A DNA stretch of 32,142 nucleotides. Source: Euryarchaeota archaeon UBA596. Lineage in GTDB: Archaea > Thermoplasmatota > Poseidoniia > Poseidoniales > Poseidoniaceae. Below the pieces are notes generated by a model. It was given only the letters and a program-made list of their open reading frames with translations. It was not told where the DNA came from and ran no database searches. The stretch spans positions 1 to 32,142 of the forward strand of contig DAGQ01000056.1 of the NCBI GenBank assembly GCA_002498205.1, read 5' to 3'. The number at the start of each line of letters is the position of its first letter. Within the stretch, counting starts at the first letter, position 1. Shown here piece by piece: positions 2-28,522 of this stretch. The position numbers were made by a program, and so were the translations under genes.

Positions 2-2596
2 AGAGTAATTGAGCAGGGAGGAATTTATTTTACTGGAACTACTGGAATAATGTCTTTGAATTCAGAAAATGTAGTAAATTATAATATTAATTTTGGAGAT
101 CAACATACAATTCTGATGGATAGAACATATTGTATCGAATTAGAATTGAAAGATACTATTGAGGGTACTATTCTTGCTGAAACCTTAGATTGTATATTAA
201 CTCCAAATGGTATAGTAGATACTTCACAAGTAAGATGGAGTAACAGTTTAGAAACAGGTTCAACATGGGTTTCTTCTGCGGTAGAAGGTAAAGAAGGTCA
301 TTTAGCAGTTGACGACAATTACGATACTTATTGGGAATCAGAAAGCTCCTGTCAGAATGAGGATCAAGCAATCATAATTAATCTTCCAGGTTATGATGAT
401 GGAAATTTCCATCCAGTTTCAGCAATATCTTTAGAATGGTTAACTGACCCTCAAATGCCAATAAATTATGAGATTTTAGCATGGACGTCAGATGAAAAAT
501 GGCAACAACTAATAGAAGTAGAAGAAAATTTTGAACTTGAATATTGGAGCCGTCCGATTAATCATTTTATTGGCCAAATTGATGCCAATAGAATTAAGGT
601 AGTCTGTACACATTCTGAAGATACAACAATTGGATTAACAGAAATAAGAATTCATGAATGGCAAAATGCTAATTCTGGTGGCGGAGGTATTTTGGATGCC
701 TTCTATCCAAATGATCTTTCAGATGGTGCAGAAATTTATGTTACTAGCGAATATGGAAGTAATTCAGGTCCTAAAGCAATTGATAATGATTTCACTTCAT
801 TTTGGGAATCAAATGATTCATGTTCTGATTCAAATCAAGATATTATGATTGATTTAGAGCAGGAATATTATATTGGTGCTATGAAAGTAACTTGGGGATT
901 TTCATCATTTGATAATCAGTATATTGGTGGTGAAATTAAAATTTGGAATGAGCAGAATGGGTGGATTCATGTAATGAATTTCGACCAAAATCCAATTGAT
1001 GAAGATCCAGAATTTTATCTTTTTTATCCCAATTATGGTCAGAAAATAGTTTTCAAATGTCTGAGTTTAGATTTAAATTTAAAAATTAGCGAAATAGAAA
1101 TATTTGAGGCTAAATCAGATTGGCATGAATTTGATTTTGATAATGATGGTAAAAGTAACGGAGCAGATCAATGTTTCATTGGAGAATCAGAATGGTCTTC
1201 AGATCCATTAAAAGATTATGATGGTGATGGTTGTTTTGATGATACAGAAGATTGGGATGACGATAATGATGGTATTAATGATGAACAAGATAATTGTCCA
1301 AAAGGCCAGTTTAATTGGAATTCTTGGGATGAAGGTACAGATTTTGATCACGATGGTTGCTTTGATGATACAGAAGATTGGGATGATGATGCAGATGGTA
1401 TACCAGATTCTAATGATACATGTTTACTAACAAGACTTGGAGCAGGAGTTGACTTTGATGGTTGTGAGATTTCTTTTGATGACGGTGATGGAGATGGAGT
1501 AGCTGATTCTTATGACCAATGTTCCGAAACCCCAAATGGTACTGAAGTAGATATGTTCAATGGTTGTCCGTTATTTTATGATTCAGATGGAGATGGAGTT
1601 TTTGATAATGAGGATGCATTCCCAGAAGATTCTTCAGAACAATATGATGATGATGACGATGGCGTTGGAAATAATGCTGATAATTGTCCAAATACACAAT
1701 CGGGTGACTTTGTAGATCCTGCTGGTTGCACTGTTACTGTGCAAGATGACCCATTAAATGAAACTGCAAACGAAACTGCAAATGAAACTGCAAACGAAAC
1801 TGCGATTGATACTGATGGTGACGGTGTAAATGATTTCAACGAAGACGGAACAGTTTTAGATAATTGTCCAGAAACGGAAGAAGGAGTAGAGGTAGATGAA
1901 TTTGGATGTTCAACTTTAGATGCACTTCCTCCTCAATTAGCTGCTGCATTAGATTTCATTTTGAATATTGATTCATTACTTGGACTTCCAGATGGAACAT
2001 TAGAAATTATGTTTGCGGCATTGGGTATGATGTTTGGTGTACTTAGATTCGTAGGCCGAAGAACATTAGCAGGTAAGTCTAAACGTGTTGAAAAATATGC
2101 ATCAGAAATAAGATTAGCAAGAAGTCGTAGAGAACTAGAAAATCTTGAGAAAAGAATTACTAAAGATAATGAAAAGAAGCTTTTACCACCAGGAGGATTC
2201 GGGGATTTGATGGAATTAATTGAAACAAGAGCCATCGAACTTGGAGAAATGGATATGGCATCTCAAGTGAGACAAACAGCAGCTGAAGCTGATATGGTAG
2301 AATCTCATGAGAGGATGTTAGAAGAAATGGAAGGAACTAGAGAGGCCGTAGCAGGATTACAAGAAGAACTTTCTGAAATGCGTCGTAAGGGTCCACCTGG
2401 CAAGGGTAAAAGAAAAGGCCCTCCACGTAGAAGAGGTGGAGATGATTCGGGTTATAGAATGCAACAATCTGGAGGGCCAAGACGCCCCTCATTGCATCCT
2501 GCTGATTTGGATGGAGATGGTTTTGTAACAGAAGAAGAAAAAAGAATTTATAGACAGAGAAAAGAACAGGAGGATGGTCTTTGGGAATATGATTGA
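2..2596 (+). CDS. Large cell-surface adhesin-like protein, probably 5'-truncated by the window edge. Two discoidin (F5/8 type C)-like domains, thrombospondin type-3-like Ca-binding repeats, a C-terminal TM anchor and a cytoplasmic tail.
   Basis: ORF track gives 50..2596, but the frame stays open back to nt 2 (RVIEQGGIYFTGTTGI precedes the Met). There is no SD near ATG-50 and no signal peptide after it. AVDDNYDTYWES and AIDNDFTSFWES are typical discoidin-domain motifs. Many DxDxDGxxDxxD motifs with flanking Cys (DGCFDDTEDWDDDNDGINDEQDNCP etc.). Hydrophobic LEIMFAALGMMFGVLRFVG is followed by RR. Confidence 0.8.
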   Translation, partial: RVIEQGGIYFTGTTGIMSLNSENVVNYNINFGDQHTILMDRTYCIELELKDTIEGTILAETLDCILTPNGIVDTSQVRWSNSLETGSTWVSSAVEGKEGHLAVDDNYDTYWESESSCQNEDQAIIINLPGYDDGNFHPVSAISLEWLTDPQMPINYEILAWTSDEKWQQLIEVEENFELEYWSRPINHFIGQIDANRIKVVCTHSEDTTIGLTEIRIHEWQNANSGGGGILDAFYPNDLSDGAEIYVTSEYGSNSGPKAIDNDFTSFWESNDSCSDSNQDIMIDLEQEYYIGAMKVTWGFSSFDNQYIGGEIKIWNEQNGWIHVMNFDQNPIDEDPEFYLFYPNYGQKIVFKCLSLDLNLKISEIEIFEAKSDWHEFDFDNDGKSNGADQCFIGESEWSSDPLKDYDGDGCFDDTEDWDDDNDGINDEQDNCPKGQFNWNSWDEGTDFDHDGCFDDTEDWDDDADGIPDSNDTCLLTRLGAGVDFDGCEISFDDGDGDGVADSYDQCSETPNGTEVDMFNGCPLFYDSDGDGVFDNEDAFPEDSSEQYDDDDDGVGNNADNCPNTQSGDFVDPAGCTVTVQDDPLNETANETANETANETAIDTDGDGVNDFNEDGTVLDNCPETEEGVEVDEFGCSTLDALPPQLAAALDFILNIDSLLGLPDGTLEIMFAALGMMFGVLRFVGRRTLAGKSKRVEKYASEIRLARSRRELENLEKRITKDNEKKLLPPGGFGDLMELIETRAIELGEMDMASQVRQTAAEADMVESHERMLEEMEGTREAVAGLQEELSEMRRKGPPGKGKRKGPPRRRGGDDSGYRMQQSGGPRRPSLHPADLDGDGFVTEEEKRIYRQRKEQEDGLWEYD
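1226..1401 (+). repeat. Internal near-identical duplication inside the adhesin gene (two ~50-bp copies, 126 bp apart)
   Basis: gatggttgttttgatgatacagaagattgggatga at 1226 recurs as gatggttgctttgatgatacagaagattgggatga at 1352. Both encode DGCFDDTEDWDDD. Confidence 0.85.
1757..1804 (+). repeat. 12-bp tandem repeat x4 encoding (NETA)4
   Basis: aatgaaactgca aacgaaactgca aatgaaactgca aacgaaactgcg, in frame in the adhesin ORF. Confidence 0.95.
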
Positions 2597-2609
2597 TTGA
2601 TGCTTTGAA

Positions 2610-2625
2610 GGTATTGAAAAATACC
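2610..2625 (+). other. Perfect 6-bp stem with GAAA tetraloop, 14 nt after the adhesin stop codon. Function unknown (transcript 3'-end or processing element?).
   Basis: GGTATT-GAAA-AATACC. The flanking TTGA...TCAA can extend the stem across an internal loop. Confidence 0.3.
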
Positions 2626-2697
2626 CAATCAAGGTGTCAATTGTTTAAATTACAACTAAAGGTTATAGTGGGATTAGATGGGTGCGGTATCTGTATC

Positions 2698-2705
2698 GGG
2701 GTGAT
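2698..2705 (+). promoter_or_regulatory. Shine-Dalgarno site serving a TTG start
   Basis: GGGGTGAT lies 3 nt before TTG at 2709. The first in-frame ATG is about 68 codons downstream. Confidence 0.6.
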
Positions 2706-2708
2706 TAA

Positions 2709-4241
2709 TTGGCTAGGAAGAGACGTGGAAAGGGCCAGAGGCGACGTAAAAATGCCGGTGCGGACAAAAGAAATTATGATGAATTAGACAAATATCCCGT
2801 AAGGCCACCACATGCTTTTGCTAGAGTTGTACGGGATAGACGTTCATTGAATATTTTGTATCAAGTAATTGAACCACCACTTTCCAAAAAAGAAGAAAAA
2901 TATCGTCAAGAGATTATGGATATTTTTGTTAGAAGTCTAAATGCCAGTATTGAGGATATTGAAGCTGATGCCGCAGCATATCTTAGAACATCTATGGACA
3001 AAGTTATCAAATCTTATGGTATGAAAATCAATAAAAAATCTAAATCTAAATTATTTTATTATCTCCGTAGAGATTTATTAGGATATGGAAAAATGGATGT
3101 TTTAATGTCTGATCCAAATATTGAGGATGTTTCATTAGATGGAATGAATATACCAATTTTCGGATATCATAGGAAATTTGAATCTGTAGAAACTACCATT
3201 AAATGGGAGACAGATGAAGAATTAGAAGCTTATATCATTAAACTTGCTCAACGTTGTGGAAAACATATTTCAGTTGCTGAACCATTATTAGATGCTACAT
3301 TAATGGATGGTTCTAGGATTGTAATGAAATTAGGGCATGAAATTTCAACTAGAGGTTCAACTTTCTGTATTAGGCGTTTCCGTGATGATCCCTTTTCTCC
3401 TTGCGACCTTATTGCATTTAGAACAATGACTAGTCTAATGGTTGCCTATTTATGGGTCGCTTTCCAACAAGGTGTATCTATGCTTTATGTAGGTGGTACA
3501 GCATCAGGTAAGACTACAACTCTAAATGCCATGTGTATTTTCATACCCTGGCAAATGAAGATTGTAAGTATTGAATCAACAAGAGAAGTTAACATTCCAC
3601 AACCTAACTGGATTCCAGGATTAACTCGTCAAGGTTTTGGTGGAGAATCTAATGAAGGTGAGATTGGAGAATTCGAACTCTTAAAGGCCGCTCTTAGGGA
3701 ACGTCCAGAGTATATTATTGTAGGTGAAATTAGGGGTGCAGAAGCATACGTACTGTTCCAAGCCATGGCTACAGGGCACTGTGCATATTCAACAGTTCAC
3801 GCGGATTCTGTACCGTCATTAGTTCACAGATTAGAAAATAAGCCAATTGATATCCCTCGTGTTCTTCTACCAGCATTAGAAGCATGTGCAATTCAAATTC
3901 AAACAAGAATTAATGGTAAACGTGTTAGACGTTGTAAACAACTTGTGGAAATTGTGGGAATAGATCCAAACTCAATGGAAATAATTACCAATGAAGTATT
4001 CAAATGGGATCCTTCAAGAGATGATTTTGACTTCAGCGGTAAATCTTATGTTTTGGAAAAAATAATGGTAAAAATCAATTATTCACAAGATGAGATGCGT
4101 ACAGAATTACGTACTCGAAAGCGAGTTCTAGACTGGATGGTGTTAAATGATATTAGAAAATCAGATCAAGTTTCTCAAATCATTACTGAATATTATGTAA
4201 GGCCTGAACAAGTTCTCGCTCGTGTAGATGGCTTAGTGTAA
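2709..4241 (+). CDS. Type II/IV secretion-family ATPase (FlaI/PilB/TadA-like filament assembly ATPase)
   Basis: Walker A GGTASGKTTTLNA, Walker B-like YIIVGEIRGAEA, His-box GHCAYSTVHA. Basic N-terminal extension. TTG start with SD. Confidence 0.88.
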   Translation: MARKRRGKGQRRRKNAGADKRNYDELDKYPVRPPHAFARVVRDRRSLNILYQVIEPPLSKKEEKYRQEIMDIFVRSLNASIEDIEADAAAYLRTSMDKVIKSYGMKINKKSKSKLFYYLRRDLLGYGKMDVLMSDPNIEDVSLDGMNIPIFGYHRKFESVETTIKWETDEELEAYIIKLAQRCGKHISVAEPLLDATLMDGSRIVMKLGHEISTRGSTFCIRRFRDDPFSPCDLIAFRTMTSLMVAYLWVAFQQGVSMLYVGGTASGKTTTLNAMCIFIPWQMKIVSIESTREVNIPQPNWIPGLTRQGFGGESNEGEIGEFELLKAALRERPEYIIVGEIRGAEAYVLFQAMATGHCAYSTVHADSVPSLVHRLENKPIDIPRVLLPALEACAIQIQTRINGKRVRRCKQLVEIVGIDPNSMEIITNEVFKWDPSRDDFDFSGKSYVLEKIMVKINYSQDEMRTELRTRKRVLDWMVLNDIRKSDQVSQIITEYYVRPEQVLARVDGLV

Positions 4242-4251
4242 GGAGATAAAA

Positions 4252-5307
4252 ATGGAATTAAATGCCTGGCAGAAGATAGGCCATCGCCTTTTGGGTGGTC
4301 TTTTAAGAAAAAGGGCAAGAGGAGATAAAGAATTATCTAATAATATTCAAAGAGGTAACTTAAACATAATGCCAGAAGTTTTTATGGCAACTAGTATATT
4401 ATCTACAATAGCAACTGTTGGGATTTTAGTTGGGTTAAATGTACTCGTTTTTATGCCAGGAATTGGAGGTGTTGCATTATATGAAAATATTCAAGACCCT
4501 GTTTCAATCCCTCTTTGTGTAGATTGGGCATATTGGCATTCAGATGAGATTGATTATAATCTTAATTGGGGAGTTAATTCTGATGAATTTGGAGAAGTAC
4601 AGTATGGGGGATGTCCTTATTATCAAACTAAATCTTTTCCGGCTCCTTTGAAGATAGTTATTCCAGTACTAACTCTTGGTTTAGGGCCATTGTTGGCATA
4701 TAGAACTTTCATGGGTGGAGCTAAAAGAGCTGCAGAAATGAGATCAAAAGATATTGAAAAATATCTACCTTATGCTGCATCATATACTGCTGCTATGTCT
4801 GCAGCTAATGCAACACCACAGAAAATTTTCCGTTCATTAGCAAAGAACCAAGATATTTATGGAGAAATATCTCATGATTCTGCACAAATTTATAGAGATA
4901 CAAATCTTCTTGGTTTTGATTTAGTTACTGCAATTAAAATGTCTGTAGGAAGGGCAGCATCACCTTGGTTAACTGAGTTCTTTCAAGGAATGGAAGGTAC
5001 TTTAACAGCAGGAGGTAATCTCAAGATATATTTCTTAAATCGTGCTGAACATTACATGAGAGAGAATAGAACAAGATTGCACGTATTTTTAGAAACATTA
5101 GCAATGCTTGCAGAATCTTATGTTGTAGTTGCAGTGGCTATGCCTCTGTTTTTACTTGTAATGCTCGTAATTATGTTTTGGGTTAGTGGTTCTGGTTCTA
5201 CAATGGATGAAAGTACGCTTTACTTTATTGTGCTAGGATTTTTACCAATGATTCATATTGCTTATGGATATTTAGTCTGGGCAATGTCAGCAGATCAAAA
5301 TATGTGA
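4252..5307 (+). CDS. Polytopic membrane protein with one T2SSF (FlaJ/TadB/PilC-type platform) domain
   Basis: AAGGAGAT SD before the ATG. The cytoplasmic block KYLPYAASYTAAMSAANATPQKIFRSLAK...LLGFDLVTAIKMSV...AGGNL fits the T2SSF pattern. Hydrophobic helices at both ends. Follows the ATPase by 10 nt. Confidence 0.75.
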   Translation: MELNAWQKIGHRLLGGLLRKRARGDKELSNNIQRGNLNIMPEVFMATSILSTIATVGILVGLNVLVFMPGIGGVALYENIQDPVSIPLCVDWAYWHSDEIDYNLNWGVNSDEFGEVQYGGCPYYQTKSFPAPLKIVIPVLTLGLGPLLAYRTFMGGAKRAAEMRSKDIEKYLPYAASYTAAMSAANATPQKIFRSLAKNQDIYGEISHDSAQIYRDTNLLGFDLVTAIKMSVGRAASPWLTEFFQGMEGTLTAGGNLKIYFLNRAEHYMRENRTRLHVFLETLAMLAESYVVVAVAMPLFLLVMLVIMFWVSGSGSTMDESTLYFIVLGFLPMIHIAYGYLVWAMSADQNM

Positions 5308-5315
5308 GGTGGTGA
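5306..5315 (+). promoter_or_regulatory. Shine-Dalgarno site serving a TTG start, overlapping the upstream stop codon
   Basis: GAGGTGGTGA lies 4 nt before TTG at 5320. Confidence 0.6.
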
Positions 5316-5319
5316 AAAA

Positions 5320-6915
5320 TTGGCAAGAAAAAAGAAAAATAAATTAAAAGTTGATTTAGATCTTCCAAAAGATGATTCAACGATGACTTATTTTTATTTG
5401 ATTTGTACCGTTTCAATTATTCTTGGATTAATGTGTATGGGTTTTTGGTTTACAAATAGTAATTTTATGCCCGGAAATGATGATGCAGCTTTACCATTTT
5501 TTGTAAGTACTTATTGTCAAACTACAGCTCAAGACGAATTTGGTAACCCAAACCCTGAACCTTTTGCAAATGCTAGATTAGGATTAGAAACATCATACAA
5601 AGATAATGAAACATGTTCAATTTTAACAGATTCACCATCTCCCGCTGAATGGGTTTTAGATGACCCCTGGGAAGGGATGGATGGAAAGGCCAGATCTTTT
5701 CAAGTACCTGGATTAAAAGACTCACAACTTGCAGGAAAATCCCATCCATTACAGGAATTAAGAGTTGATTGTACAGCAGAATCATTAGATTATCCTACTT
5801 TAGAATACACTGTTAGTATTTTAGATGAAGATGAACAATTACCTGGTGATAGTTGGAGACATATAGGTAGAGCTAATGATAATGATTGTAGTATTTTAAT
5901 TGAACATGCTGACCCTGGAGAATATCAAATTAGATTAATTCCAGAGTGGCCTGAAGGAGTCTCTTCTGCTCCTGACTTTGAATTTAGTTTTACAGTAACT
6001 GCAATGGTTTATGATGGAATACCGAATTATATGAATAATAAATCACAATGGATTGGTCCAGAAGTAAATTTAGGAGGCTTCTCATTACATCCTACAATTT
6101 ATATTAACTTCTTTGGATTTGCTTTCTTTTTGATGATTTACCCAGCTTCAGTTTATTGGGATAGAGTACAGAGAAATATTAACGCAAGGGAAGAAAAATT
6201 TCCAGATTTTTTGAGGGACTTAGCAGAATATTGGAAGGGTGGTTTATCAATGACAGTGGCTGTTACATCACTTGCAAATTCAGAATATGGAGCATTAAAT
6301 GATGATGTAAAAAAGATGTCTAATCAGATTAGTTGGGGGGTGGCTTTTGGAGATGTATTGGAGTTATTTGCTGCAAGAGTAAATACTCCATTGGTTAAAA
6401 GAGCAGTTTCCTTAATTTCTGAGGCTAATAAGGCAGGGGGTAAAATCTCAGATATTCTTGTAACTGCAGCAAGTGATAGTAGAGAAATTAAATTTTTAGA
6501 GGGTGAGCGGAGCAGAACTATTTCATCATATATTGCAGTAATTTGGGTATCTTATTTGGTTTTCATGATTGTTATTGTTATTTTGTCAAGAGTATTTATT
6601 CCAGCGATTGCAGAATCAAATACAGGATCTGGCGGCGACTCTTCAGCACAAATTGGAAATATGCAAATTAGAGCAATAGATCCATTATTATTCTTAGTAG
6701 TTTTCTTTTATGGTGTTACTATGCAAGCATTAGGGAATGGGGCAATGGCGGGTTTAATGGCAAATGGAAGATTAAGTTCTGGATTTAAACATGCAGGAAT
6801 GATGTTAGTTTTAGCGATACTTTCCTTTACTTTTATTTCATTTATCCCTTCTTTGATTGGAGTGCCGACTAGTCCCGGTTTGAATCCTTCTATTGGAATG
6901 TTGAGGATAACGTAA
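5320..6915 (+). CDS. Second T2SSF-domain platform protein (TadC/FlaJ-like) with a ~230-aa extracytoplasmic N-terminal domain
   Basis: FPDFLRDLAEYWKGGLSMTVAVTSLA...ISWGVAFGDVLELFAARV...ISEANKAGGKISDIL is a textbook T2SSF domain. N-terminal TM (MTYFYLICTVSIILGLMCMGFWF), then a 4-Cys soluble region, then several C-terminal TMs. Confidence 0.8.
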   Translation: MARKKKNKLKVDLDLPKDDSTMTYFYLICTVSIILGLMCMGFWFTNSNFMPGNDDAALPFFVSTYCQTTAQDEFGNPNPEPFANARLGLETSYKDNETCSILTDSPSPAEWVLDDPWEGMDGKARSFQVPGLKDSQLAGKSHPLQELRVDCTAESLDYPTLEYTVSILDEDEQLPGDSWRHIGRANDNDCSILIEHADPGEYQIRLIPEWPEGVSSAPDFEFSFTVTAMVYDGIPNYMNNKSQWIGPEVNLGGFSLHPTIYINFFGFAFFLMIYPASVYWDRVQRNINAREEKFPDFLRDLAEYWKGGLSMTVAVTSLANSEYGALNDDVKKMSNQISWGVAFGDVLELFAARVNTPLVKRAVSLISEANKAGGKISDILVTAASDSREIKFLEGERSRTISSYIAVIWVSYLVFMIVIVILSRVFIPAIAESNTGSGGDSSAQIGNMQIRAIDPLLFLVVFFYGVTMQALGNGAMAGLMANGRLSSGFKHAGMMLVLAILSFTFISFIPSLIGVPTSPGLNPSIGMLRIT

Positions 6916-6931
6916 CGGGTGGTTGGTAGAT

Positions 6932-7390
6932 ATGCGTAAGCTTTCTTCTGATACAAGTGCTCAAGTACATGTAATTGAAATGTTGACATTATTTTGGTTA
7001 TTTTTTATGTCAGCAATGTTTGTTATTAATATCCATGTTCCAGATTCTAATTCTGAAATTATCGATGCTTCATTATCTATGGCTGGTAGAGATGCTCTAG
7101 ATTTAGCGGCGAGTGAACCTGCATTTGATTCAACTAACCATTCTTCAAAATTAACAGAATTATTATCTTTAGATGATTATAGTGATGCATGTAATTTTGT
7201 AAAACAAGGATTACCTTCAACTTATGAAGCAAATTGCTGGGTGGCACAAAATAGCGGATCCATGGACATTTCTGGATTTAGTGGTTCTCCAATTGGGAAT
7301 AGTGTGACATCATATCTTATTATACAAGATTCTGGAAATATCTGGAGTATTGCTCTTGACGTTTGGAGTCAAGGAGGTGGAGCAATATGA
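6932..7390 (+). CDS. Pilin-like protein candidate (class III signal-peptide-like N-terminus)
   Basis: MRKLSSDTSA-QVHVIEMLTLFWLFFMSAMFVINI: short polar leader, Gln, then ~20 hydrophobic residues. GGTGGT SD upstream. I prefer ATG 6932 over the ORF-track TTG at 6923. Confidence 0.55.
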   Translation: MRKLSSDTSAQVHVIEMLTLFWLFFMSAMFVINIHVPDSNSEIIDASLSMAGRDALDLAASEPAFDSTNHSSKLTELLSLDDYSDACNFVKQGLPSTYEANCWVAQNSGSMDISGFSGSPIGNSVTSYLIIQDSGNIWSIALDVWSQGGGAI

Positions 7391-7821
7391 AGAAAAAAGA
7401 ATTATTTAATGATGATTCAGGCCAAATGTTATTGGCTGCGGGTTTGGTTTTATTGATGAGTTTACTTTCAATGTCATTGTATGGAGTTAAGGTGGCAGGT
7501 TATGATTTACCCAGAACTAGCGATGTTACAGATGTATTGGATGCTACAGAAGAAATAGAATCTATGTTTCTTCCAACATTAGAGAATAGAACTCAAGTCC
7601 GTTTTGATAATGGTATGAATCTGAATGATGCAACCATAGATTCTTTAGAAACAGTAGAATATGATATCAAAAATCATGGAATATTAAGAGGTATTCAGTT
7701 TAGTTTTACAGAAACAGATATTGTTGTAGATGGAAATAATGTGACCGTCAATACAATCTTAAATGTTGTATCTGATTCTATGATTGAATTACCTATTTCA
7801 GCAAGTTATACAATTTCATAG
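7387..7821 (+). CDS. Pilin-like protein candidate (class III signal-peptide-like N-terminus)
   Basis: MKKKELFNDDSG-QMLLAAGLVLLMSLLSMSL. GGAGGTGGAG SD. ATGA start/stop overlap with the preceding gene. I prefer ATG 7387 over the ORF-track start at 7363. Confidence 0.6.
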   Translation: MKKKELFNDDSGQMLLAAGLVLLMSLLSMSLYGVKVAGYDLPRTSDVTDVLDATEEIESMFLPTLENRTQVRFDNGMNLNDATIDSLETVEYDIKNHGILRGIQFSFTETDIVVDGNNVTVNTILNVVSDSMIELPISASYTIS

Positions 7822-8442
7822 ATTTTGTTCAGCACGATTCCATTCTAGATCAAACCAATGTGCAATTTCACTTACTGCATTTATTCCAGTTGATAAATCA
7901 ATAGTTTTCCAGTTTAATGGCTTTCCAATATCTAGAATTCCATTTTGAATATTTCTTATGGTATCAAAAGAACTTAGATATCTATCAGCGTTTCTCCATG
8001 TTTGTTTCTCTCTAGAGACTAACATTTGCTTATGATTTTCATCATTATGAACATAAAGAATTACTCCAATTGCTACTCCGCCTGCATTTTCCCATTTTCG
8101 TATAATTTCATTATCTGGCTTAATATGAACCCCTTCTAAGATTAAATCTACCCCTTCCCTTCTTGATTTGTCAATAATGGAATTAATTCCACCTGAAACG
8201 ACATTACTACATTCTTCCCAATCAGAAATAGGGTGATTATATCTTCCAACACTGAAAGTACTTCTGTGTAATTCCGGAGCTTCTAATGAATCAACATTTG
8301 AACGTAAGACTTCACGTATTGAATCTGTAGAAACTACTCTTTTAATTTTTAAAAAATTTGCAAGTTCCATTGAAAGTGTAGATTTCCCAACACCATTAAC
8401 TCCTGCTAATAATAGTAATTTAGGTCTACGAGATTTTTTCAT
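7816..8442 (-). CDS. 2-phosphoglycerate kinase-family P-loop kinase
   Basis: LLAGVNGVGKSTLSMELANFLKIKRVVSTDSIREVLRS and LILEGVHIKP match the 2PGK family signature as I know it. The internal ATG at 8442 has an AGGTG SD 8 nt upstream; ORF-track start 8475 has none. Confidence 0.65.
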   Translation of the reverse strand: MKKSRRPKLLLLAGVNGVGKSTLSMELANFLKIKRVVSTDSIREVLRSNVDSLEAPELHRSTFSVGRYNHPISDWEECSNVVSGGINSIIDKSRREGVDLILEGVHIKPDNEIIRKWENAGGVAIGVILYVHNDENHKQMLVSREKQTWRNADRYLSSFDTIRNIQNGILDIGKPLNWKTIDLSTGINAVSEIAHWFDLEWNRAEQNL

Positions 8443-8579
8443 GAATTTTGCACCTAGCTCATTAAAGATATACATCGGTAAAAGTATTCACTCTTTTGAT
8501 TTTCTCAATTATTTTTTTCTTTAGGCTATTTGTCTTTAGAACCTCATATATCCAAAAGGTATTACTTTATCCGGATAAC

Positions 8580-9359
8580 ATGCCAGTGGAACTTGAGCCC
8601 ATTTCAGATAAAACAATACTAGTTACTTTAACTGACGAATCAGCAACAAATGCATTCGATCCAGACTTTATGTCCGAATTAGATTTAAAATTAAGACAAA
8701 TAATTGAGGATGATAAAATCCATTCATTTATTTTGACAGGAACTGAAAAATTTTTTTGTGCTGGTGCTAATATTAATGAATTCAGAAAACATTATGATAA
8801 AGGAACAATTGGTAAATGGATTAAAAAAATGACTGATATTTTACATCCTTTAATATTAAAAATTAGGAATAGCGATACAATAATGATTGCTGCAGTAAAT
8901 GGTGCAGCCGCAGGAGCTGGCTTGGGATTAGCACTTTCTGCAGATTATCGTATTGCATCTCCTGGAGGTAAATTTGCAGCATCATATTTTTCTTTAGGCT
9001 TATCTCCTGATGGCGGTACTAGTTGGTTATTACCAAGATTAGTAGGTTCACAAAAATCTAGGATCTTTTTCTTTGAGAATCAAGTTTGGTCAGCAGAAAA
9101 GTGTTTAGAGTACGGAGCGGTTGATGAATTGGTAGATGATGCCTCTTTAATTGAAAAATCGATTAAAAAAGCTAATGAATGGGGGAGTTGGTCAAAAGCA
9201 AGTCGTTCTAGTAAAGATTTACTGGATCATCAAGAGAACAATAATTTAGAATCACATTTAAAATTAGAACAAAGAAGAATTATTGATGCTGGTTTTACTC
9301 CTGAATTTTCAGAAGGTATCAATGCATTTTTAGAGAAAAGAAAAGCAGATTTTAATTAA
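8580..9359 (+). CDS. Enoyl-CoA hydratase/isomerase (crotonase) family protein
   Basis: FFCAGANINEF and NGAAAGAGLGLALSADYRIAS are crotonase oxyanion-hole motifs. The N-terminal 28 aa of the ORF-track call (from 8496) look non-coding. Confidence 0.85.
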   Translation: MPVELEPISDKTILVTLTDESATNAFDPDFMSELDLKLRQIIEDDKIHSFILTGTEKFFCAGANINEFRKHYDKGTIGKWIKKMTDILHPLILKIRNSDTIMIAAVNGAAAGAGLGLALSADYRIASPGGKFAASYFSLGLSPDGGTSWLLPRLVGSQKSRIFFFENQVWSAEKCLEYGAVDELVDDASLIEKSIKKANEWGSWSKASRSSKDLLDHQENNNLESHLKLEQRRIIDAGFTPEFSEGINAFLEKRKADFN

Positions 9360-10528
9360 ATTAAAGTAGCATTATTTTGAATATTCATTTCTTTAATCAA
9401 TTTTTTGAATTCTAATCTGACAATTGCTATGTTACTCTTCACCTCTTTAATTTTTAATTTCATAGTAATTCTATTTTGACGCCATGTTTCTTTGATTAAC
9501 ATTTTTCTATTCTTTTTAGCATCTTTATATTCAATTCTTTTCTTTTTGAGGTCTTTTAATAAATTTCTAATTTGTCTTGTACAATTTTTTAATCTTTGAT
9601 TATAGTCTTCTTTTATTTTTAGATTTAGATTATTTTCTTTGTGTTCATAAGAAGTTTTCATTCTGGCATTTTCAATTGACCATGAAGGGACTTTATGCAA
9701 GTTTTTTGTAATTTTTATGAATGAAAATACCCTTATCCACCATTTTGTTGGATCCCAATGGTACCATTTGTGTCCATTTCGATAATCTGTTTGAAATGTA
9801 TGATGGAAATTATGATATCCTTCACCAAATGTCAGTAAAGATAGAATTGGAGAATCTCTAGATGTATTTTTTGTGGAGTAGTTTTGCTTACCCCAATAGT
9901 GTGCCCCTGAATTAATTAAGAAAGTTCCATGATGAACCATTACAAGACGTACTAATCCTCCCCAAATAAATCCTCCAAAGAAACCTGTTAAACCCCCTAT
10001 TAGAAGCATTCCTATTAATCCCGGAAATATTATCCCAGCAAAACCACCAATTTTGAAAATATGCTTATCTTGCCATGCGAGAATTGGGTCTTCTTGTAAA
10101 TCTTTTACATGTTCGATTTTCTCTTCATCTTCAGAAACCATAACCCATCCCATATGGGCCCAAAAAAACCCCCTTACAATTGAGTATGGATCTTCCTCAG
10201 TATCAGTCTTTAGATGGTGTCTTCTATGATCACTGCACCATTTAATTACTGAATTTTGAAAGGCGGCAGCCCCAAAAATAGCATAAAATAATCTTAAAGG
10301 CCATGATGCAGAATAAGATCTGTGACTAAATAATCTGTGATATCCTGCAGTTATTGAGATTCCACTGACGACATACATAAAAAATAGAATGCCGATTTCA
10401 AAAAAAGAGATTCCAAAATTAACTGTGTACCAATACACACCAATAATTGCCAGAATTGGAGTTCCACATAAAAATGAAGCATTTAAGAGATCTAACTTCC
10501 ACTCCGGCTTATTTGAAACCTCACTCAT
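9356..10528 (-). CDS. Membrane acyl-CoA (delta-9-type) fatty-acid desaturase with a Lys-rich C-terminal coiled-coil extension
   Basis: Three His boxes: HRLFSH, HRRHH, HNFHH. Four hydrophobic segments. Confidence 0.88.
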   Translation of the reverse strand: MSEVSNKPEWKLDLLNASFLCGTPILAIIGVYWYTVNFGISFFEIGILFFMYVVSGISITAGYHRLFSHRSYSASWPLRLFYAIFGAAAFQNSVIKWCSDHRRHHLKTDTEEDPYSIVRGFFWAHMGWVMVSEDEEKIEHVKDLQEDPILAWQDKHIFKIGGFAGIIFPGLIGMLLIGGLTGFFGGFIWGGLVRLVMVHHGTFLINSGAHYWGKQNYSTKNTSRDSPILSLLTFGEGYHNFHHTFQTDYRNGHKWYHWDPTKWWIRVFSFIKITKNLHKVPSWSIENARMKTSYEHKENNLNLKIKEDYNQRLKNCTRQIRNLLKDLKKKRIEYKDAKKNRKMLIKETWRQNRITMKLKIKEVKSNIAIVRLEFKKLIKEMNIQNNATLI

Positions 10529-10636
10529 AATTGTTGCTCATGCCTTACCGTTATTGACTTTGTCGGATTTCCAACATATTTTTTGATAATTTCCAATGAT
10601 TTTAAATTAGAGGGTTTTCTCAAAATATTGAAGCCA

Positions 10637-10738
10637 ATGGATAATATAATTTCTATTTGTAGAAAATGCGGTTTTACAATTGGTATTTTTGTACCAGGAA
10701 TGGAATGTCCTGAATGTGGTGAGTTAATATTTCCTTAA
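10637..10738 (+). CDS. Small (33 aa) zinc-ribbon protein candidate, absent from the ORF track
   Basis: My translation is MDNIISICRKCGFTIGIFVPGMECPECGELIFP, with CxxC...CxxC. Its stop overlaps the convergent stop of the dehydrogenase gene. No convincing SD. Confidence 0.35.
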   Translation: MDNIISICRKCGFTIGIFVPGMECPECGELIFP

Positions 10739-11643
10739 TTTAATGGCAAATCATCTCTTTCAGATTTTTGATTATTTATCCAATTGTAAATACCTTTATC
10801 GGTTTTTTTTCCTAATTCTCCTTTCTCAACTAATTTCTCTAATAATGGATGTGGTAAATAAGAAGAATCTCCAGTGGCTTCAGCAAGACCGAGTAATATA
10901 TCTCTTCTAACATCTAAACCCACTAAATCTGAAAGCTCTAGTGGCCCCATTGGATGTCTATATCCTAAATTCATAGCATAATCAATATCTGATGCACTAG
11001 CAACTCCTTCTGCAAGCATTCTAATCGCTTCATTCCCTAAGACTACACCTAATCTAGAGGTGGCAAACCCGGGACTATCTTTTACCACAATTGCAGTTTT
11101 ATTCATTGAACTTGCAATGTTTTTTGTAATTTCAACTATTTCATTTGATATTTCATCATGCTTAATAATTTCAAGTAATTTCATTAAAGGAACAGGGTTA
11201 AAAAAATGCATTCCAATAACTCTTTTTGGGTTTTTTGTCGATTTAGCAATTTTTGTAATTGAGAGACTAGATGTATTTGTCGCTAAAATACAATTAGGTT
11301 TAGTAAACTCATCAAGTTCTTGAAAAATCTTTATTTTTAAATCGATAATTTCGGGTACAGCTTCAATTACTAAATCAGCATCAGAAACTGCAGAAATTAA
11401 TTTATCAGATGTGTTCAAAAATGATGACCAAATTTCTTTTTGTTCTGTGGTTGTTTTCCCTTTACTAATTCCTTTATCCCAGAATGCATTAATTTTAGCA
11501 ATTCCATTTTTTATACTTTCTGGATATTTATCAAAAAGAATAGTTTCAAATCCACTCTCACAACAAACCTGAGCAATTCCTGCACCCATTGTCCCAGAAC
11601 CAATTACTGTAATTTTTCTTATTTCCAAATTATCACAAACCAT
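10735..11643 (-). CDS. 3-hydroxyacyl-CoA dehydrogenase (NAD-binding, HBD/PaaH-like)
   Basis: KITVIGSGTMGAGIAQ Rossmann motif, NTSSLSIT, and the C-terminal dimerisation domain (GFATSRL...GYRHPMGPLELSDLVGLD). Confidence 0.9.
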   Translation of the reverse strand: MVCDNLEIRKITVIGSGTMGAGIAQVCCESGFETILFDKYPESIKNGIAKINAFWDKGISKGKTTTEQKEIWSSFLNTSDKLISAVSDADLVIEAVPEIIDLKIKIFQELDEFTKPNCILATNTSSLSITKIAKSTKNPKRVIGMHFFNPVPLMKLLEIIKHDEISNEIVEITKNIASSMNKTAIVVKDSPGFATSRLGVVLGNEAIRMLAEGVASASDIDYAMNLGYRHPMGPLELSDLVGLDVRRDILLGLAEATGDSSYLPHPLLEKLVEKGELGKKTDKGIYNWINNQKSERDDLPLN

Positions 11644-11650
11644 GTCTAAC

Positions 11651-12211
11651 TTAAGGTTTTTTCATTTTTTGAGAATACCATTCTACTAATCCTAATTGTA
11701 ATAATCTTTGTCGAGGTAGAGCATATTCAGGTAAAGCCTCGGCTGGTGCATACAGCTTTAACCCCTCAATTACTGATACATATTTCGAATAGCAAGTCAA
11801 ATCATTTGGATCATAAGGAACATTCAAATTCATTAATTCTAAAGCTAAACATGCTTTTTCATCATAAATAGGATGAATATTTTTTAGAAAATGAAGCCAA
11901 TTTGATAATACGATACAATCTACATTCTCAATAGAAAGTAGATTTTCTATCATTGAAATATCGGGATATTTAGTGATTTCTAATGTTGAAATAATTTCCT
12001 GATTAATTTCATCATCCCAATCTTGTTCTTTAAATCCAATATATTCATTGATTTTTTTAATTTGATTATATCCATTTAGTTCCAAGGTATCATAAAGCAT
12101 TCTTTCATAGTTTGGATCTTCAATTTCAGAAATCTCTAATAATTCTGGCAATAAATTGAAAAAATCATTACATTCATTCGTATCAATCCCAAATAAGGAA
12201 GTAGGAATCAA
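11651..12211 (-). CDS. Acidic hypothetical protein (186 aa) embedded in the CoA-thioester cluster
   Basis: TTG start with a GGTGA SD 6 nt upstream. 14-nt gap to the upstream gene and 7 nt to the downstream gene. No motif I recognise. Confidence 0.6.
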   Translation of the reverse strand: MIPTSLFGIDTNECNDFFNLLPELLEISEIEDPNYERMLYDTLELNGYNQIKKINEYIGFKEQDWDDEINQEIISTLEITKYPDISMIENLLSIENVDCIVLSNWLHFLKNIHPIYDEKACLALELMNLNVPYDPNDLTCYSKYVSVIEGLKLYAPAEALPEYALPRQRLLQLGLVEWYSQKMKKP

Positions 12212-12217
12212 TTAGAT

Positions 12218-12222
12218 TCACC
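12218..12222 (-). promoter_or_regulatory. Shine-Dalgarno site serving a TTG start
   Basis: Minus-strand GGTGA lies 6 nt before TTG (12211..12209). Confidence 0.5.
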
Positions 12223-12225
12223 ATC

Positions 12226-13389
12226 TTATTGTAATTGGCCGATTCCAGAATCAATCATTCTTTGCGTAACAGCTCTATGTTCTATCCATTCTTTTTTGAA
12301 TAATTCTTTCAGATTTTCTTCATCTTCATCAGTAGGAAGGAATTTATTACAATATTCTTCATAACTTCCATCATCTTCTCCCCATTCATCTCCTTCTACA
12401 GTATATTGTTTACCAGCATAAGTTCCAATATTTCTATTGAATTTTTCATCTGCGACATAAAATGGAGTTTCATCTTCTAAAATTAGTTTGTTGAATTTCT
12501 CTTCAACTTCACGTACAATCTCATCATGATAATGTCCTCTAGATTCTTCATTGAGTTTTTCTTTATTTACTTCTTGATCTTTTTTAAGTTTCTTTCTCTC
12601 GTCCCATCTTCCTTTAATTCCCCATACGTATGCCCATTCAGCACTAGAAGAATTGTCAGTTCCGAATAAATCATGGGCCGTTGAAACCCATTTATTCATG
12701 TATCTTTGTAGTAAATCTCTAGGGATTACATTTGCTTTAATTATTCTACGCAATCCATTTGCTCCAGTTCCAAGGTGGAAAGCTTCTTCTTTCAACATCG
12801 GTCCCATACTTGCAGCTAATGGCTTGAAACTAGATGTTGACAACATTCCTAATTGGAATTTACCGTCCCTATCTACAAACATAGTATAACAGAAAAAGTC
12901 TAACCAATGATCCATTGGTTCATTAAATGCTCCAAGAAGTCTGCTTCCTGTTTGTGCATTTCTTTCAAGTAGTTTTTGTGCTTCACGTGCACCTTGTTTT
13001 CCAAAATAAGTCATTAACAAATAACACATTTGCCATCCATGGCGTTGTTCTTCAACCATAATTCTAGCAGCTGCATATCTGTCATAATCAGTAGGTGCTG
13101 ATTCTAACAAATGTTTTTGTTGTTCTACAGATGCAAATTCTGTATCTCCTTGGACAGTAATCATTGATAATAATGAGTCACGAATATTTTGGTGAGGTAT
13201 TTGTAAGGACCTTTCCCATTTTGGCCTCCCTGCATAATCGCCAAATTCAATTACTTCTCCAGCTCTTTCCCAGTCGAAAAGAGGTTTTAATTCAAAATCA
13301 CCAGCCCACTTTGCATCAAAGCCAACATTCTCTCTCCATAGTTCAAAATTTGCTACCCATTCGTCAAAAGTGGTTGGTAGTTTCCCCAT
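12226..13389 (-). CDS. Diiron-carboxylate oxygenase, BoxB-like (benzoyl-CoA 2,3-epoxidase family), shortened
   Basis: ITVQGDTEFASVEQQKH, VEEQRHGW, FVDRDGKFQLG and KEEAFHLG. The two ExxH motifs are about 88 residues apart by my count. ATG 13389 has a GTGGT SD; the ORF-track GTG at 13398 is less likely. Confidence 0.7.
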   Translation of the reverse strand: MGKLPTTFDEWVANFELWRENVGFDAKWAGDFELKPLFDWERAGEVIEFGDYAGRPKWERSLQIPHQNIRDSLLSMITVQGDTEFASVEQQKHLLESAPTDYDRYAAARIMVEEQRHGWQMCYLLMTYFGKQGAREAQKLLERNAQTGSRLLGAFNEPMDHWLDFFCYTMFVDRDGKFQLGMLSTSSFKPLAASMGPMLKEEAFHLGTGANGLRRIIKANVIPRDLLQRYMNKWVSTAHDLFGTDNSSSAEWAYVWGIKGRWDERKKLKKDQEVNKEKLNEESRGHYHDEIVREVEEKFNKLILEDETPFYVADEKFNRNIGTYAGKQYTVEGDEWGEDDGSYEEYCNKFLPTDEDEENLKELFKKEWIEHRAVTQRMIDSGIGQLQ

Positions 13390-13450
13390 GAGGACCACGT
13401 GTGAGTAAACGTATTTGAGTTTGTGTATTAGAGAATTTAATTATTACAAA

Positions 13451-14302
13451 TCATTCTCCAGTGAAGTTAGCTACTTTTTTATTCACATAAGCAGCAATTC
13501 CTTCTTTAGCATCATTAGACTGGAATAGATCTGATTGTAATTCACGTTCTAGTGCAAGATGGTATTCAAGCGGTAATTCAATTCCACTTTGTACACTTCT
13601 TTTGATATTTCCAACAGCTTTAACTGCTTTATTTGGTAAAGTAAATTGACCTGCCCAATCTAAAACATCTCTTCTAAAATCTCCAGCATCACTATCAAAA
13701 ATTTGGTTAACTAAATTCATATCATCTCCATCTTCAAATGAGATTAATTCTCCAGTAACCATTAACTCTAATGCTTTTGCTTTTCCAATAAGTCTCGTTA
13801 ACCTGGCTGTACCGCCTGTTCCTGCTAATACACCTAGGTTAATTTCTGGTAATCCTAATTTCCCTGCATTTTTTCTTGCGATTCTCATATCCGCCGCCAT
13901 TGCAATTTCCAAACCACCACCAACGGTATGGCCGTTTAATGCTGCAATTACTAATTTTGGAGTTTGTTCAAGGCGTGATAGAGTTTCATTTGCATGTAAA
14001 CAAAAGAAATATTTATAACGCGGAGAAAGACTATTTAGATAATTGATACTTGCACCAGCAGAAAAGAAATTATTTCCTTTTCCAGTAACTAAAATCACAG
14101 TTACTTTGTCGTCAAAACGTGCATTTAGAATTGCGGTATCTATATCTTCCCACATTTCACGAGTATATGTGTTTACAGGGGTTTTTCCGTCAGTCAGTGG
14201 TTTACCATCAGAATCTGAGGACAGTTCAATTATAGCGATTCCATTTTCGGTTACACCATAATTCACAAGGTTGTTAGGCATGGCTTCTAATTCAAGGCTC
14301 AT
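13451..14302 (-). CDS. Crotonase-family protein, resembling the N-terminal half of BoxC-type enzymes
   Basis: FFSAGASINYL and NGHTVGGGLEIAMAADMRIA crotonase motifs, plus LPEINLGVLAGTGGTARL. ATG 14302 has a GGTGGG SD 7 nt upstream; the ORF-track TTG at 14332 overlaps the upstream gene. Confidence 0.8.
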   Translation of the reverse strand: MSLELEAMPNNLVNYGVTENGIAIIELSSDSDGKPLTDGKTPVNTYTREMWEDIDTAILNARFDDKVTVILVTGKGNNFFSAGASINYLNSLSPRYKYFFCLHANETLSRLEQTPKLVIAALNGHTVGGGLEIAMAADMRIARKNAGKLGLPEINLGVLAGTGGTARLTRLIGKAKALELMVTGELISFEDGDDMNLVNQIFDSDAGDFRRDVLDWAGQFTLPNKAVKAVGNIKRSVQSGIELPLEYHLALERELQSDLFQSNDAKEGIAAYVNKKVANFTGE

Positions 14303-14328
14303 GTTCAGGCCCACCAGTAACCAGTTCT

Positions 14329-26630: not shown

Positions 26631-26661
26631 GGCTCTGCCAGCACGCACCTGTGTTGGAGCC
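26631..26661 (+). other. GC-rich imperfect dyad (11 bp with a 3-nt bulge) overlapping the annotated cdc6 start
   Basis: GGCT-ctg-CCAGCAC-gcacct-GTGTTGG-AGCC. By my count 26619-26662 has 30 G+C of 44 nt, within AT-rich intergenic DNA. A G6 run lies at 26684-26689. Confidence 0.45.
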
Positions 26662-27937: not shown

Positions 27938-28522
27938 TTGTTAAACCAAGTTGCTAAGTCGCAGGGCTTAATGAGTGAAGTAGCGGACGAAGCAACAACT
28001 AGTTTTTTGGTACCAAGTAAAAGGATTTCTGGTTGGTTATTTATTCTTTCAATTTGGGGTATTTTGTTATGGTTACTTAATTTATTGAAAATGGCTACAC
28101 CCACAGGAGATAAGGTTGTTTGGTCTAGTCTACTTTCGATAGGTTTAATCGGTGGAGATTATCAAACAACTAATCCCGATTTTAGACCATTTAGTGATGG
28201 AATTTTTATCATACTCTGTGTTATAATTAATGTTTTAGCAGTAAGGGGAATTAACTCAAATGTTGAAGGTGGTATGAAAGGTTGGTTAATGAATATTAAA
28301 TCTGACTTTTGGCCTGCATTGGTAGATTTTTCTGGTAGTATTAGAAAGACAGTATCGTTATGGTGTATTTTAATTGGAATTTCCTTTTACATAACTTGGG
28401 GTATTTTGAATGGTGGATGGGTAGATCCTGGAGTTTATGCTGTAGCTGCCCCATTTGTAGCATTTGGTTGGGCATTTGGCAAATTAGCAGATGCAGAAGC
28501 TTCCGAGCCAAATGAAAACTAA
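27938..28522 (+). CDS. Hypothetical integral membrane protein (about 4 TM)
   Basis: Hydrophobic segments WLFILSIWGILLWLL, GIFIILCVIINVLAV, LWCILIGISFYITWGIL and AVAAPFVAFGWAF. The start may be ATG 27971. Confidence 0.6.
   Translation: MLNQVAKSQGLMSEVADEATTSFLVPSKRISGWLFILSIWGILLWLLNLLKMATPTGDKVVWSSLLSIGLIGGDYQTTNPDFRPFSDGIFIILCVIINVLAVRGINSNVEGGMKGWLMNIKSDFWPALVDFSGSIRKTVSLWCILIGISFYITWGILNGGWVDPGVYAVAAPFVAFGWAFGKLADAEASEPNEN

Follow-up and report, generated by a model that had tools for sequence, protein, structure and literature searches.

Marine Group II archaea (MGII; order Poseidoniales) are among the most abundant archaea of the surface ocean and, to our knowledge, have always escaped cultivation. 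That they attach to particles and algae is a supposition argued almost wholly from 'flagella genes'. The locus described here raises the question of which machine such genes encode: an archaellum, or another member of the type IV filament family. It lies at the left end of a 32,142-nucleotide (nt) stretch of DNA from Euryarchaeota archaeon UBA596 (contig DAGQ01000056.1 of assembly GCA_002498205.1), which we call the window; the window has a G+C content of about 34% and originates from the Poseidoniales lineage MGIIa.1. An earlier note on this DNA, made from the letters alone, had proposed a type IV pilus operon coupled to a giant calcium-binding adhesin. Our analysis indicates that the locus very probably encodes a type IV filament machine of a non-archaellar kind.

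The operon and its conservation

The genes in question follow the 3' part of the adhesin gene, which is cut by the end of the contig. Sizes are given in amino acids (aa) and the scores are Pfam E-values.

2–2596, + strand: adhesin, 3' part, 864 codons; reading frame open from base 2, running off the 5' end
2658–2667, + strand: promoter-like element AAAGGTTATA, resembling a B recognition element (BRE) and TATA box, 51 nt upstream of the ATPase start codon
2709–4241, + strand: ATPase of the T2SSE (PilB/FlaI-like) superfamily, 510 aa; TTG start; T2SSE, 8e-27
4252–5307, + strand: N-terminal half of the platform (F1), 351 aa; ATG start; T2SSF, 2.4e-11
5320–6915, + strand: C-terminal half of the platform (F2), 531 aa; TTG start; T2SSF, 1.8e-12
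6932–7390, + strand: prepilin-like protein s1, 152 aa; ATG start; [A/G]-Gln motif and hydrophobic helix
7387–7821, + strand: prepilin-like protein s2, 144 aa; ATG start; [A/G]-Gln motif and hydrophobic helix

As the earlier note had described, the genes run in one direction and are closely spaced, in the order ATPase, two one-domain T2SSF proteins and two proteins of about 150 aa. The gaps measure 10 nt (ATPase–F1), 12 nt (F1–F2) and 16 nt (F2–s1), and s1 and s2 share an ATGA start/stop overlap at 7387–7390. The gap between adhesin and ATPase, 112 nt, is far longer than those inside the operon. Shine–Dalgarno-like sequences (GGTG or GGAGG) precede the start codon by 5–9 nt at all five genes. 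In 43 of 75 loci the motif AAAGGT[TC]ATA stands 49–59 nt before the start codon of the ATPase, independently of the gene that lies upstream, and the element at 2658–2667 may represent the operon's own promoter of the BRE/TATA type.

Conservation was surveyed by tblastn, with the window proteins as queries against 80 fetched Poseidoniales species loci. The block ATPase–F1–F2–s1–s2 is kept in every sufficiently long locus, and its retention across 80 species genomes means that the arrangement is not due to chance. The ATPase is 99% identical to a gene on contig NZRR01000042 of the near-identical metagenome-assembled genome (MAG) EAC30 and 82–88% identical to its counterparts in other genera. Identity in the other genera drops along the operon, to 52–63% for F1, 49–55% for F2, 38–48% for s1 and 30–41% for s2. 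The locus is also carried by a genome of the Thalassarchaeaceae (MGIIb; locus L077), and its downstream neighbour in most loci is the same convergent gene, resembling 2-phosphoglycerate kinase. Taken together, it is likely that positions 2709–7821 constitute a single operon for a non-archaellar type IV filament machine, conserved across the Poseidoniales.

In the window, the convergent gene (7816–8475, − strand) codes for a P-loop kinase, and it and s2 overlap at their 3' ends by 6 nt. The usual upstream neighbour in Poseidoniales loci is a second small P-loop kinase (AAA_17/AAA_18). One contig filed under the 'Verrucomicrobiales bacterium' MAG ARS100 (NZEQ01000077.1, locus L068) carries the full Poseidoniales operon with its flanks and an ATPase 83% identical to that of the window; most likely the contig is archaeal and was mis-binned.

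Each of the two platform proteins has one T2SSF domain, at aa 178–304 in F1, which has about four to five membrane helices, and at aa 297–422 in F2. On ArlJ profiles, F1 covers positions 53–225 of 555 and F2 positions 224–457 of 465. The two proteins match complementary halves of full-length models, so the platform is split, as the earlier note had proposed, and not duplicated. All loci long enough to include both F1 and F2 show the split, so a frameshift from sequencing does not explain it. F2 contains a segment of about 215 aa with four Cys (5455–6100 of the window), located between membrane helices 1 and 2 and predicted to be extracellular; the counterpart in a distant locus, L083, is about 130 aa shorter. 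F1 has a smaller loop with two Cys.

The ATPase and its relation to the archaellum

The sequence motifs of the ATPase are intact, with the Walker A motif GGTASGKT at aa 262, the Walker B motif YIIVGEIR at aa 335 and the His box TVHA at aa 362. FlaI is the best-scoring named model for this protein, and public names of the orthologues agree with it: the ATPase is labelled 'FlaI' by the Joint Genome Institute and UniRef, and s1 and s2 are 'hypothetical proteins'. The MGII literature mentions the genes in passing only, as 'additional flaJ, flaI and tadC' or 'flagella', and counts them under the latter heading (PMC6864105). All this would suit a second FlaI/FlaJ set, paralogous to that of the archaellum and working with it, as the name 'flagellar protein FlaI' implies.

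The score itself argues otherwise. The ATPase reaches 398.9 bits against the FlaI model (NF058587), under the NCBIfam cut-off of 550 bits, and the ATPase of a known haloarchaeal pilus of the PilB4 type reaches 395 bits. For calibration we used an exhaustive search of representative sequences with the window ATPase, which returned 150 unlabelled relatives, mostly long multi-domain proteins; nine of them (37–60% identity), chosen as representatives across the closest 150 clusters, score 374–457 bits. Non-archaellar relatives thus score about 400 bits with this model. Among solved structures, GspE of Archaeoglobus fulgidus is the closest (2OAP, 404 bits), and FlaI of Sulfolobus acidocaldarius scores 279. 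PilB3_C matches the ATPase weakly (21.7 bits, with a Pfam cut-off of 27), and PilB3_N is recorded for a 98%-identical protein (P0001) and is weak on a more distant one (P0118).

The nearest ATPases outside the Poseidoniales (P0115–P0120 and P0231–P0254; 47–60% identity) are mostly 700–1300 aa long with large N-terminal extensions, and some carry zinc-ribbon domains; the Poseidoniales form is minimal at 510 aa. A positive-control archaellum locus with FlaI was sought on haloarchaeal plasmids, and the one obtained (H1) is another pilus-type locus.

Gene content points the same way as the score. No open reading frame (ORF) of the window has a Pfam match to archaellin (PF01917), FlaH or FlaF/G, look-alikes of which the earlier note had seen none either, or to ArlC/D/E or ArlX; FlaC/D/E are likewise lacking in cis. 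The flanks of the loci examined hold kinases, an ATP-binding cassette (ABC) transporter and metabolic genes, and no archaellum genes. The motility operon of MGII has been described as co-localized FlaH-I-J and PF01917 flagellins (Tully 2019, PMC6336850). In EAC30 this operon (flaI, flaJ and three flagellins) is on contig NZRR01000031, and in SP3024 on contig PBHR01000008 (Tully Supplementary Table 3; PMC6336850). The locus studied here is on NZRR01000042 in EAC30 and on PBHR01000035 in SP3024. Since the two loci stand on different contigs of the same MAGs, these genomes carry both systems; this answers the refuting condition of the earlier note, in which archaellin genes would lie just outside the window.

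Two further observations disfavour paralogues serving the archaellum. The genes downstream of the platform resemble the pilin sets of PilB4-type loci (see below), and the locus is present in MGIIb (L077), where about half of the genera are reported to lack an archaellum operon (PMC6461757). We consider such paralogy very unlikely, and the locus is not an archaellum; the preference of the earlier note for a pilus is borne out by the ATPase score and by the separate archaellum contig. MGII genomes thus hold two separate type IV filament systems, an archaellum and a pilus-like operon that is publicly mislabelled FlaI/FlaJ, and counts of 'flaI/flaJ' in metagenomes and metatranscriptomes need to be re-read.

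The two small proteins and the upstream adhesin

The proteins s1 and s2 both have the layout of a class III signal, namely a short leader, Gly, Ala or Ser at position −1 and about 20 hydrophobic residues. The leader of s1 has 10 aa, with cleavage predicted between Ala10 and Gln11 (Gln codon 6962–6964), and that of s2 has 12 aa, with cleavage predicted between Gly12 and Gln13 (Gln codon 7423–7425). Orthologues were compared for both (s1, n = 67; s2, n = 66). The residue at +1 is Gln in 100% of them, and in both families the start codon stands some 6–13 residues before the invariant [Ala/Gly]-Gln. Position −1 is Ala in 60 of the 67 s1 sequences and Gly in the others; in s2 it is Gly in 41 of 66 and otherwise Ala. 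The motif D-x-S-[AG]-Q, by which the earlier note had linked the two proteins, occurs in the window as quoted, but only its last two positions are invariant among about 66 orthologues; the Asp and the Ser are not conserved.

The N-terminal helix following the Gln is the most constant part of each protein. Its consensus is Q-[VI]-H-x-x-E-M-[LI]-T-L-F-W-L-F-F in s1, with Gln+1, His+3 and Glu+6 in 67 of 67 sequences and TLFWLFF invariant, and the near-invariant Q-M-L-L-A-[AT]-G-x-V-L-x-x-S-L-L-S-M in s2. The remainder of both proteins diverges fast, and such a contrast between a variable head and a near-invariant N-terminal helix is typical of pilins. The s1 head has two invariant Cys (Cys87 and Cys102) and a conserved N-H-S sequon, and the s2 head a conserved N-R-T sequon; the sequons and the Cys pair would fit extracellular heads. 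AlphaFold models of moderate confidence (predicted local distance difference test (pLDDT) 78 for s1 and 80 for s2) give each protein a small alpha/beta head behind a long N-terminal helix, the head of s2 being composed of three helices and a three-stranded sheet. Comparison of s1 with s2 gave no indication that they are paralogues. A word-index protein search with either protein returned only Poseidoniales 'hypothetical proteins' without a recorded Pfam domain.

Links to the families of haloarchaeal pilin sets are weak, yet consistent. DUF7261 is the top Pfam match in 15 of 21 members of the s2 family, weakly (best E-value 0.002), and single members of the s1 family match DUF7262 and DUF7288. 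A plasmid locus of Halobaculum halophilum (L081) has the order ATPase (PilB3_N/C), T2SSF, DUF7287, DUF7288, DUF7261-like, DUF7266 and DUF7289. Its DUF7288 protein begins with MRA/QAHTLEG and its DUF7261-like protein has ...ERA/QMFLIGGLAL (the slash precedes the Gln); the counterparts in the window read A/QVHVIEM (s1) and G/QMLLAAG (s2), the same motifs in the same order. Since the two families match the haloarchaeal proteins only weakly when their profiles are compared directly, we turned to the intermediate locus L083, whose ATPase is 60% identical to that of the window. There the order is DUF7289, with a Pilin_N-like N-terminus, a DUF7266-like protein, ATPase, F1, F2, a protein of 144 aa (MFDEKG/QMHVLEV) and one of 436 aa (NEA/QLLLVTG). 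The s1 family is homologous to the 144-aa protein over the full length (hhalign 94%, E-value 1e-7), and the latter matches DUF7288 (1.3e-4). The links of s1 to DUF7288 and of s2 to DUF7261 are suggestive at the level of sequence.

Several observations weigh against s1 and s2 being pilins. All their Pfam matches are under the gathering scores, and hhalign against single haloarchaeal DUF7288 or DUF7261-like proteins gives 4–5%, mostly over the N-terminal helix. At −2 both window proteins have Ser, and only 34 of 67 s1 and 34 of 66 s2 sequences have a charged residue; a charged residue at this position has been reported to be critical for archaeal prepilin peptidases (PMC4371748). The His at +3 of s1 belongs with these points; at −3 an acidic residue is common among the orthologues of both proteins. 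A motif scan for A24/GxGD prepilin peptidases found none in the window, as in the earlier note, or within 10 kb in 85 loci, and, up to a distance of 10 kb, the loci scanned for class-III-like ORFs had no pilin of the PilA/Pilin_N or DUF7289 type and no DUF7266 or DUF7287 either. The alpha/beta heads differ from the immunoglobulin (Ig)-like sandwich of characterized archaeal pilins, and a Foldseek search of both models against the PDB retrieved no solved pilin or archaellin (best E-values 0.017–0.03, TM-scores below 0.4). The matches that it did list, dynein light chains, NTF2-like proteins and de novo designed proteins (E-values of at least 0.017), were discarded as noise.

The unusual −2 residue, the succession of helix, coiled helices and small sheet, and the missing structural match to pilins could also mean that s1 and s2 are uncleaved single-pass accessory proteins, comparable to PilN/PilO or ArlF/ArlG, and that all filament subunits are encoded elsewhere. 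We give this explanation little credence: an [A/G]-Gln pair about 6–13 residues from the start is invariant in two unrelated families, the same motif recurs in the families of haloarchaeal pilin sets, and neither protein has a Pfam match to FlaF/FlaG or PilN/PilO. It is probable that s1 and s2 are substrates of the machine, prepilin-like and encoded in cis. We call them prepilin-like only, because the −2 residue is non-canonical and their processing is a prediction. The earlier note had taken Gln at +1 as a sign of processing by EppA, but on its own the residue does not point to this enzyme: haloarchaeal DUF7288 and DUF7261-like proteins share this residue, and the window proteins lack the EppA hallmarks of Lys or Arg at −2 and Glu at +5 (s1 has a Glu at +6 and s2 none). 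For Haloferax volcanii, a review lists only PibD (PMC4371748).

In the mechanism that we propose for cleavage of s1 and s2, filament assembly, the identity of the major subunit and an adhesive role, a cytoplasmic hexameric ATPase of the PilB/GspE kind would power the machine, and F1 and F2 would form a platform of two polypeptides, together equal to one FlaJ or PilC. The proteins s1 and s2 would enter the membrane by their N-terminal hydrophobic helix; a prepilin peptidase encoded elsewhere in the genome would probably cut them at [Ala/Gly]-Gln, and by the action of the platform they would then leave the membrane and join a helical fibre. Of the PilB4-type pilin set only the DUF7288-like s1 and the DUF7261-like s2 are kept, so they would either build a short fibre of their own or serve to prime or tip a fibre made mainly of a subunit encoded in trans; we regard the two options as about equally likely. 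The most likely role appears to be attachment to particles or algal cells, and for an attachment organelle the operon offers a concrete candidate, also in lineages that lack the archaellum. It is possible, though rather unlikely, that s1 and s2 are the sole subunits of a minimal five-gene pilus and represent an uncharacterized pilin type, related to DUF7288 and DUF7261, whose helix carries Gln(+1), His(+3) and Glu(+6) and whose alpha/beta heads have no solved relative. A minimal type IV pilus would then be core to the most abundant archaea of the surface ocean, and in MGIIa.1 the filament might also be co-expressed with the inserted calcium-binding adhesin.

Assembled contigs of marine metatranscriptomes match the 3' part of the adhesin, the ATPase, F1, F2, s1 (at 7168–7318) and s2 (at 7442–7592). 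Contigs for all five genes of the operon mean that they are transcribed in the sea; at their low depth the contigs give neither the ends of the operon nor relative expression. One contig (2450–2710) spans the 3' end of the adhesin and the start of the ATPase and is compatible with some read-through from the adhesin or with carry-over of DNA. In these few low-depth contigs, whose depth measures abundance poorly, s1 and s2 do not exceed the ATPase, which leans weakly against their being typical major pilins and adds to the unfavourable points listed above.

The adhesin was also analysed. It contains F5_F8_type_C in two stretches (48.3 bits, 1.3e-12; Pfam cut-off 28.2), and ten thrombospondin-type-3-like calcium motifs of the form D-x-D-x-D-G are present; the MtsC thrombospondin-3 model matches weakly. 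Among the domains that the earlier note had named, T2SSE, T2SSF and F5_F8_type_C were found, and TSP_3 stayed below its cut-off (21.7 against 25 bits). The window copy has one C-terminal membrane helix (aa 666–685) and then a charged cytoplasmic tail of about 180 aa, and the full-length orthologue in locus L001 has 2150 aa and a Sec-type signal peptide. With a Sec-type signal and a membrane anchor, the adhesin is therefore an anchored surface protein and not a filament subunit.

Only four loci, L001, L002, L004 and L005, have a homologue of the adhesin upstream of the operon; they belong to MGIIa.1 and are the closest relatives of the window. In the remaining ones of the 80 loci, tblastn found none within 10 kb. 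In all eight loci of other genera for which ORFs were listed, the operon is preceded by a P-loop kinase of about 185 aa, and the kinase by an ABC transporter. In L001 the same kinase stands just upstream of the adhesin, so the adhesin was inserted between the kinase and the operon in MGIIa.1. It is a lineage-specific neighbour and not a component of the operon, and the coupling of adhesin and filament put forward by the earlier note finds no support beyond that lineage.

The adjoining adhesin bears on another explanation, in which the locus would encode a machine for secretion or surface assembly that has a short pseudopilus, like type II secretion or the bindosome; s1 and s2 would serve as its piston or scaffold, and the cargo exported or positioned in MGIIa.1 could include the giant adhesin. 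There are two small pilin-like genes only, with no PilA-type major pilin in cis and no sign of high expression, the heads are alpha/beta and not Ig-like, and in one lineage the adhesin is directly upstream, with the RNA contig at 2450–2710 bridging to the ATPase start. However, the adhesin is missing from this position in every locus outside the lineage of the window, and it has its own Sec signal and membrane anchor. The bindosome models BasE and BasF score 200 and 20–26 bits, against NCBIfam cut-offs of 1000 and 1300, no class III-signal substrate was found in the neighbourhoods scanned, and canonical genes of the pilin type are present in related loci (DUF7289, whose N-terminus is Pilin_N-like). 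A pseudopilus machine of this kind seems improbable to us. None of the three rival explanations, archaellum paralogues, uncleaved accessory proteins and pseudopilus, is favoured by the evidence over a pilus-like filament machine.

Two sequence features of the adhesin were noted in addition. A 12-nt tandem repeat of about four copies (1756–1814) encodes (N-E-T-A)x4, with four N-glycosylation sequons, directly before the last block of calcium motifs; several RNA contigs match this region partly, which suggests that the copy number or sequence of the repeat varies between strains. The cytoplasmic tail ends in an EF-hand-like loop, D-L-D-G-D-G-F-V-T-E-E-E (2504–2539); a stretch rich in Lys, Arg and Pro and a region predicted to be coiled come before it. 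For a surface adhesin it is unusual to carry a calcium-type motif on the cytoplasmic side.

The rest of the window includes a cluster for fatty-acid and aromatic acyl-coenzyme A (CoA) metabolism (8496–15600), with two enoyl-CoA hydratases, a 3-hydroxyacyl-CoA dehydrogenase, a fatty-acid desaturase-like gene and a PaaA/PaaC-like gene, which fits the lipid-degrading lifestyle reported for MGII. A gene for a Cdc6/Orc1 replication initiator is located at 26651–27934, and a quick search of its flanks for origin-recognition-box repeats gave none that was convincing. Four ORFs have no Pfam match at an E-value of 0.001 or less: 19689–21377 (562 aa), 29919–31451 (− strand, 510 aa), 27938–28522 (194 aa) and 11651–12211 (− strand, 186 aa). 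Rfam and transfer RNA scans of the window were empty.

Comparison with known filament systems

The archaellum shares with the Poseidoniales locus a homologous ATPase and platform, and a true archaellum operon is present in the same genomes; the locus differs by its split platform and by the absence of archaellins, ArlH, ArlF/G and ArlC/D/E. Likeness to the Ups pilus is one of layout only. The order ATPase, platform and two small pilins does recall upsXEFAB, as the earlier note observed, and this stands as an analogy, but the UpsF model gives only 27 and 41 bits against a cut-off of 400. Likewise, two one-domain T2SSF proteins are found in the Tad system as TadB and TadC, again a matter of layout; the TadA model scores 135 bits against a cut-off of 373 and the locus has no Flp-type pilin. 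The bindosome is set apart by the BasE and BasF scores given above.

The Epd pili of Methanococcus maripaludis (EpdJ/K/L, processed by EppA) resemble the locus in having two platform genes and pilins, here pilin candidates, with Gln at +1. Epd pilins, however, have Lys or Arg at −2 and Glu at +5, whereas the −2 residue of s1 and s2 is Ser or variable. The Epd ATPase belongs to clade 1 of Makarova et al., which is restricted to methanococci, methanobacteria and thermococci (PMC4858521).

A closer parallel for the platform is offered, as far as can be judged from its description, by the CdiP pilus of Cuniculiplasma divulgatum, an archaeon of the same phylum. Genes for an N-terminal and a C-terminal half of the platform stand beside the ATPase in both, and in CdiP the split platform has been tied experimentally to a pilus whose major pilin is encoded 500 kb away (PMC12448462). 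CdiP is adhesive and non-twitching, and provides a precedent for a major pilin encoded in trans. It has two ATPases, in contrast to the single one of the Poseidoniales locus, and its pilins have beta-rich heads, unlike the alpha/beta heads of s1 and s2, which are encoded in cis.

The earlier note had concluded that the combination of genes corresponds to no named type of archaeal pilus. In our analysis the locus probably fits a class that is already known: judged by sequence and gene order, it would be a reduced euryarchaeal 'clade 2' pilus, a variant of the PilB4 type, and the split platform too has its counterpart in CdiP. Clade 2 pili of the PilB4 type, as in H. volcanii, have their own set of pilins, and two tadC genes are common among them (Makarova, Koonin and Albers 2016, PMC4858521). 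With the haloarchaeal locus L081 the Poseidoniales locus shares a T2SSE ATPase, whose PilB3-type flanking domains are weak matches in the Poseidoniales, and an adjoining T2SSF platform, [A/G]-Gln proteins downstream in the order DUF7288-like then DUF7261-like, and a score of about 395–399 bits against the FlaI model. It differs in lacking DUF7287, DUF7266 and the DUF7289/PilA-related pilin in cis, in the length of the ATPase (510 aa, against 989 aa in the haloarchaeon) and in its split platform with the predicted extracellular segment of about 215 aa. The operon thereby provides a compact test case for the unstudied pilin-like families DUF7288 and DUF7261, which are also present in tractable haloarchaea.

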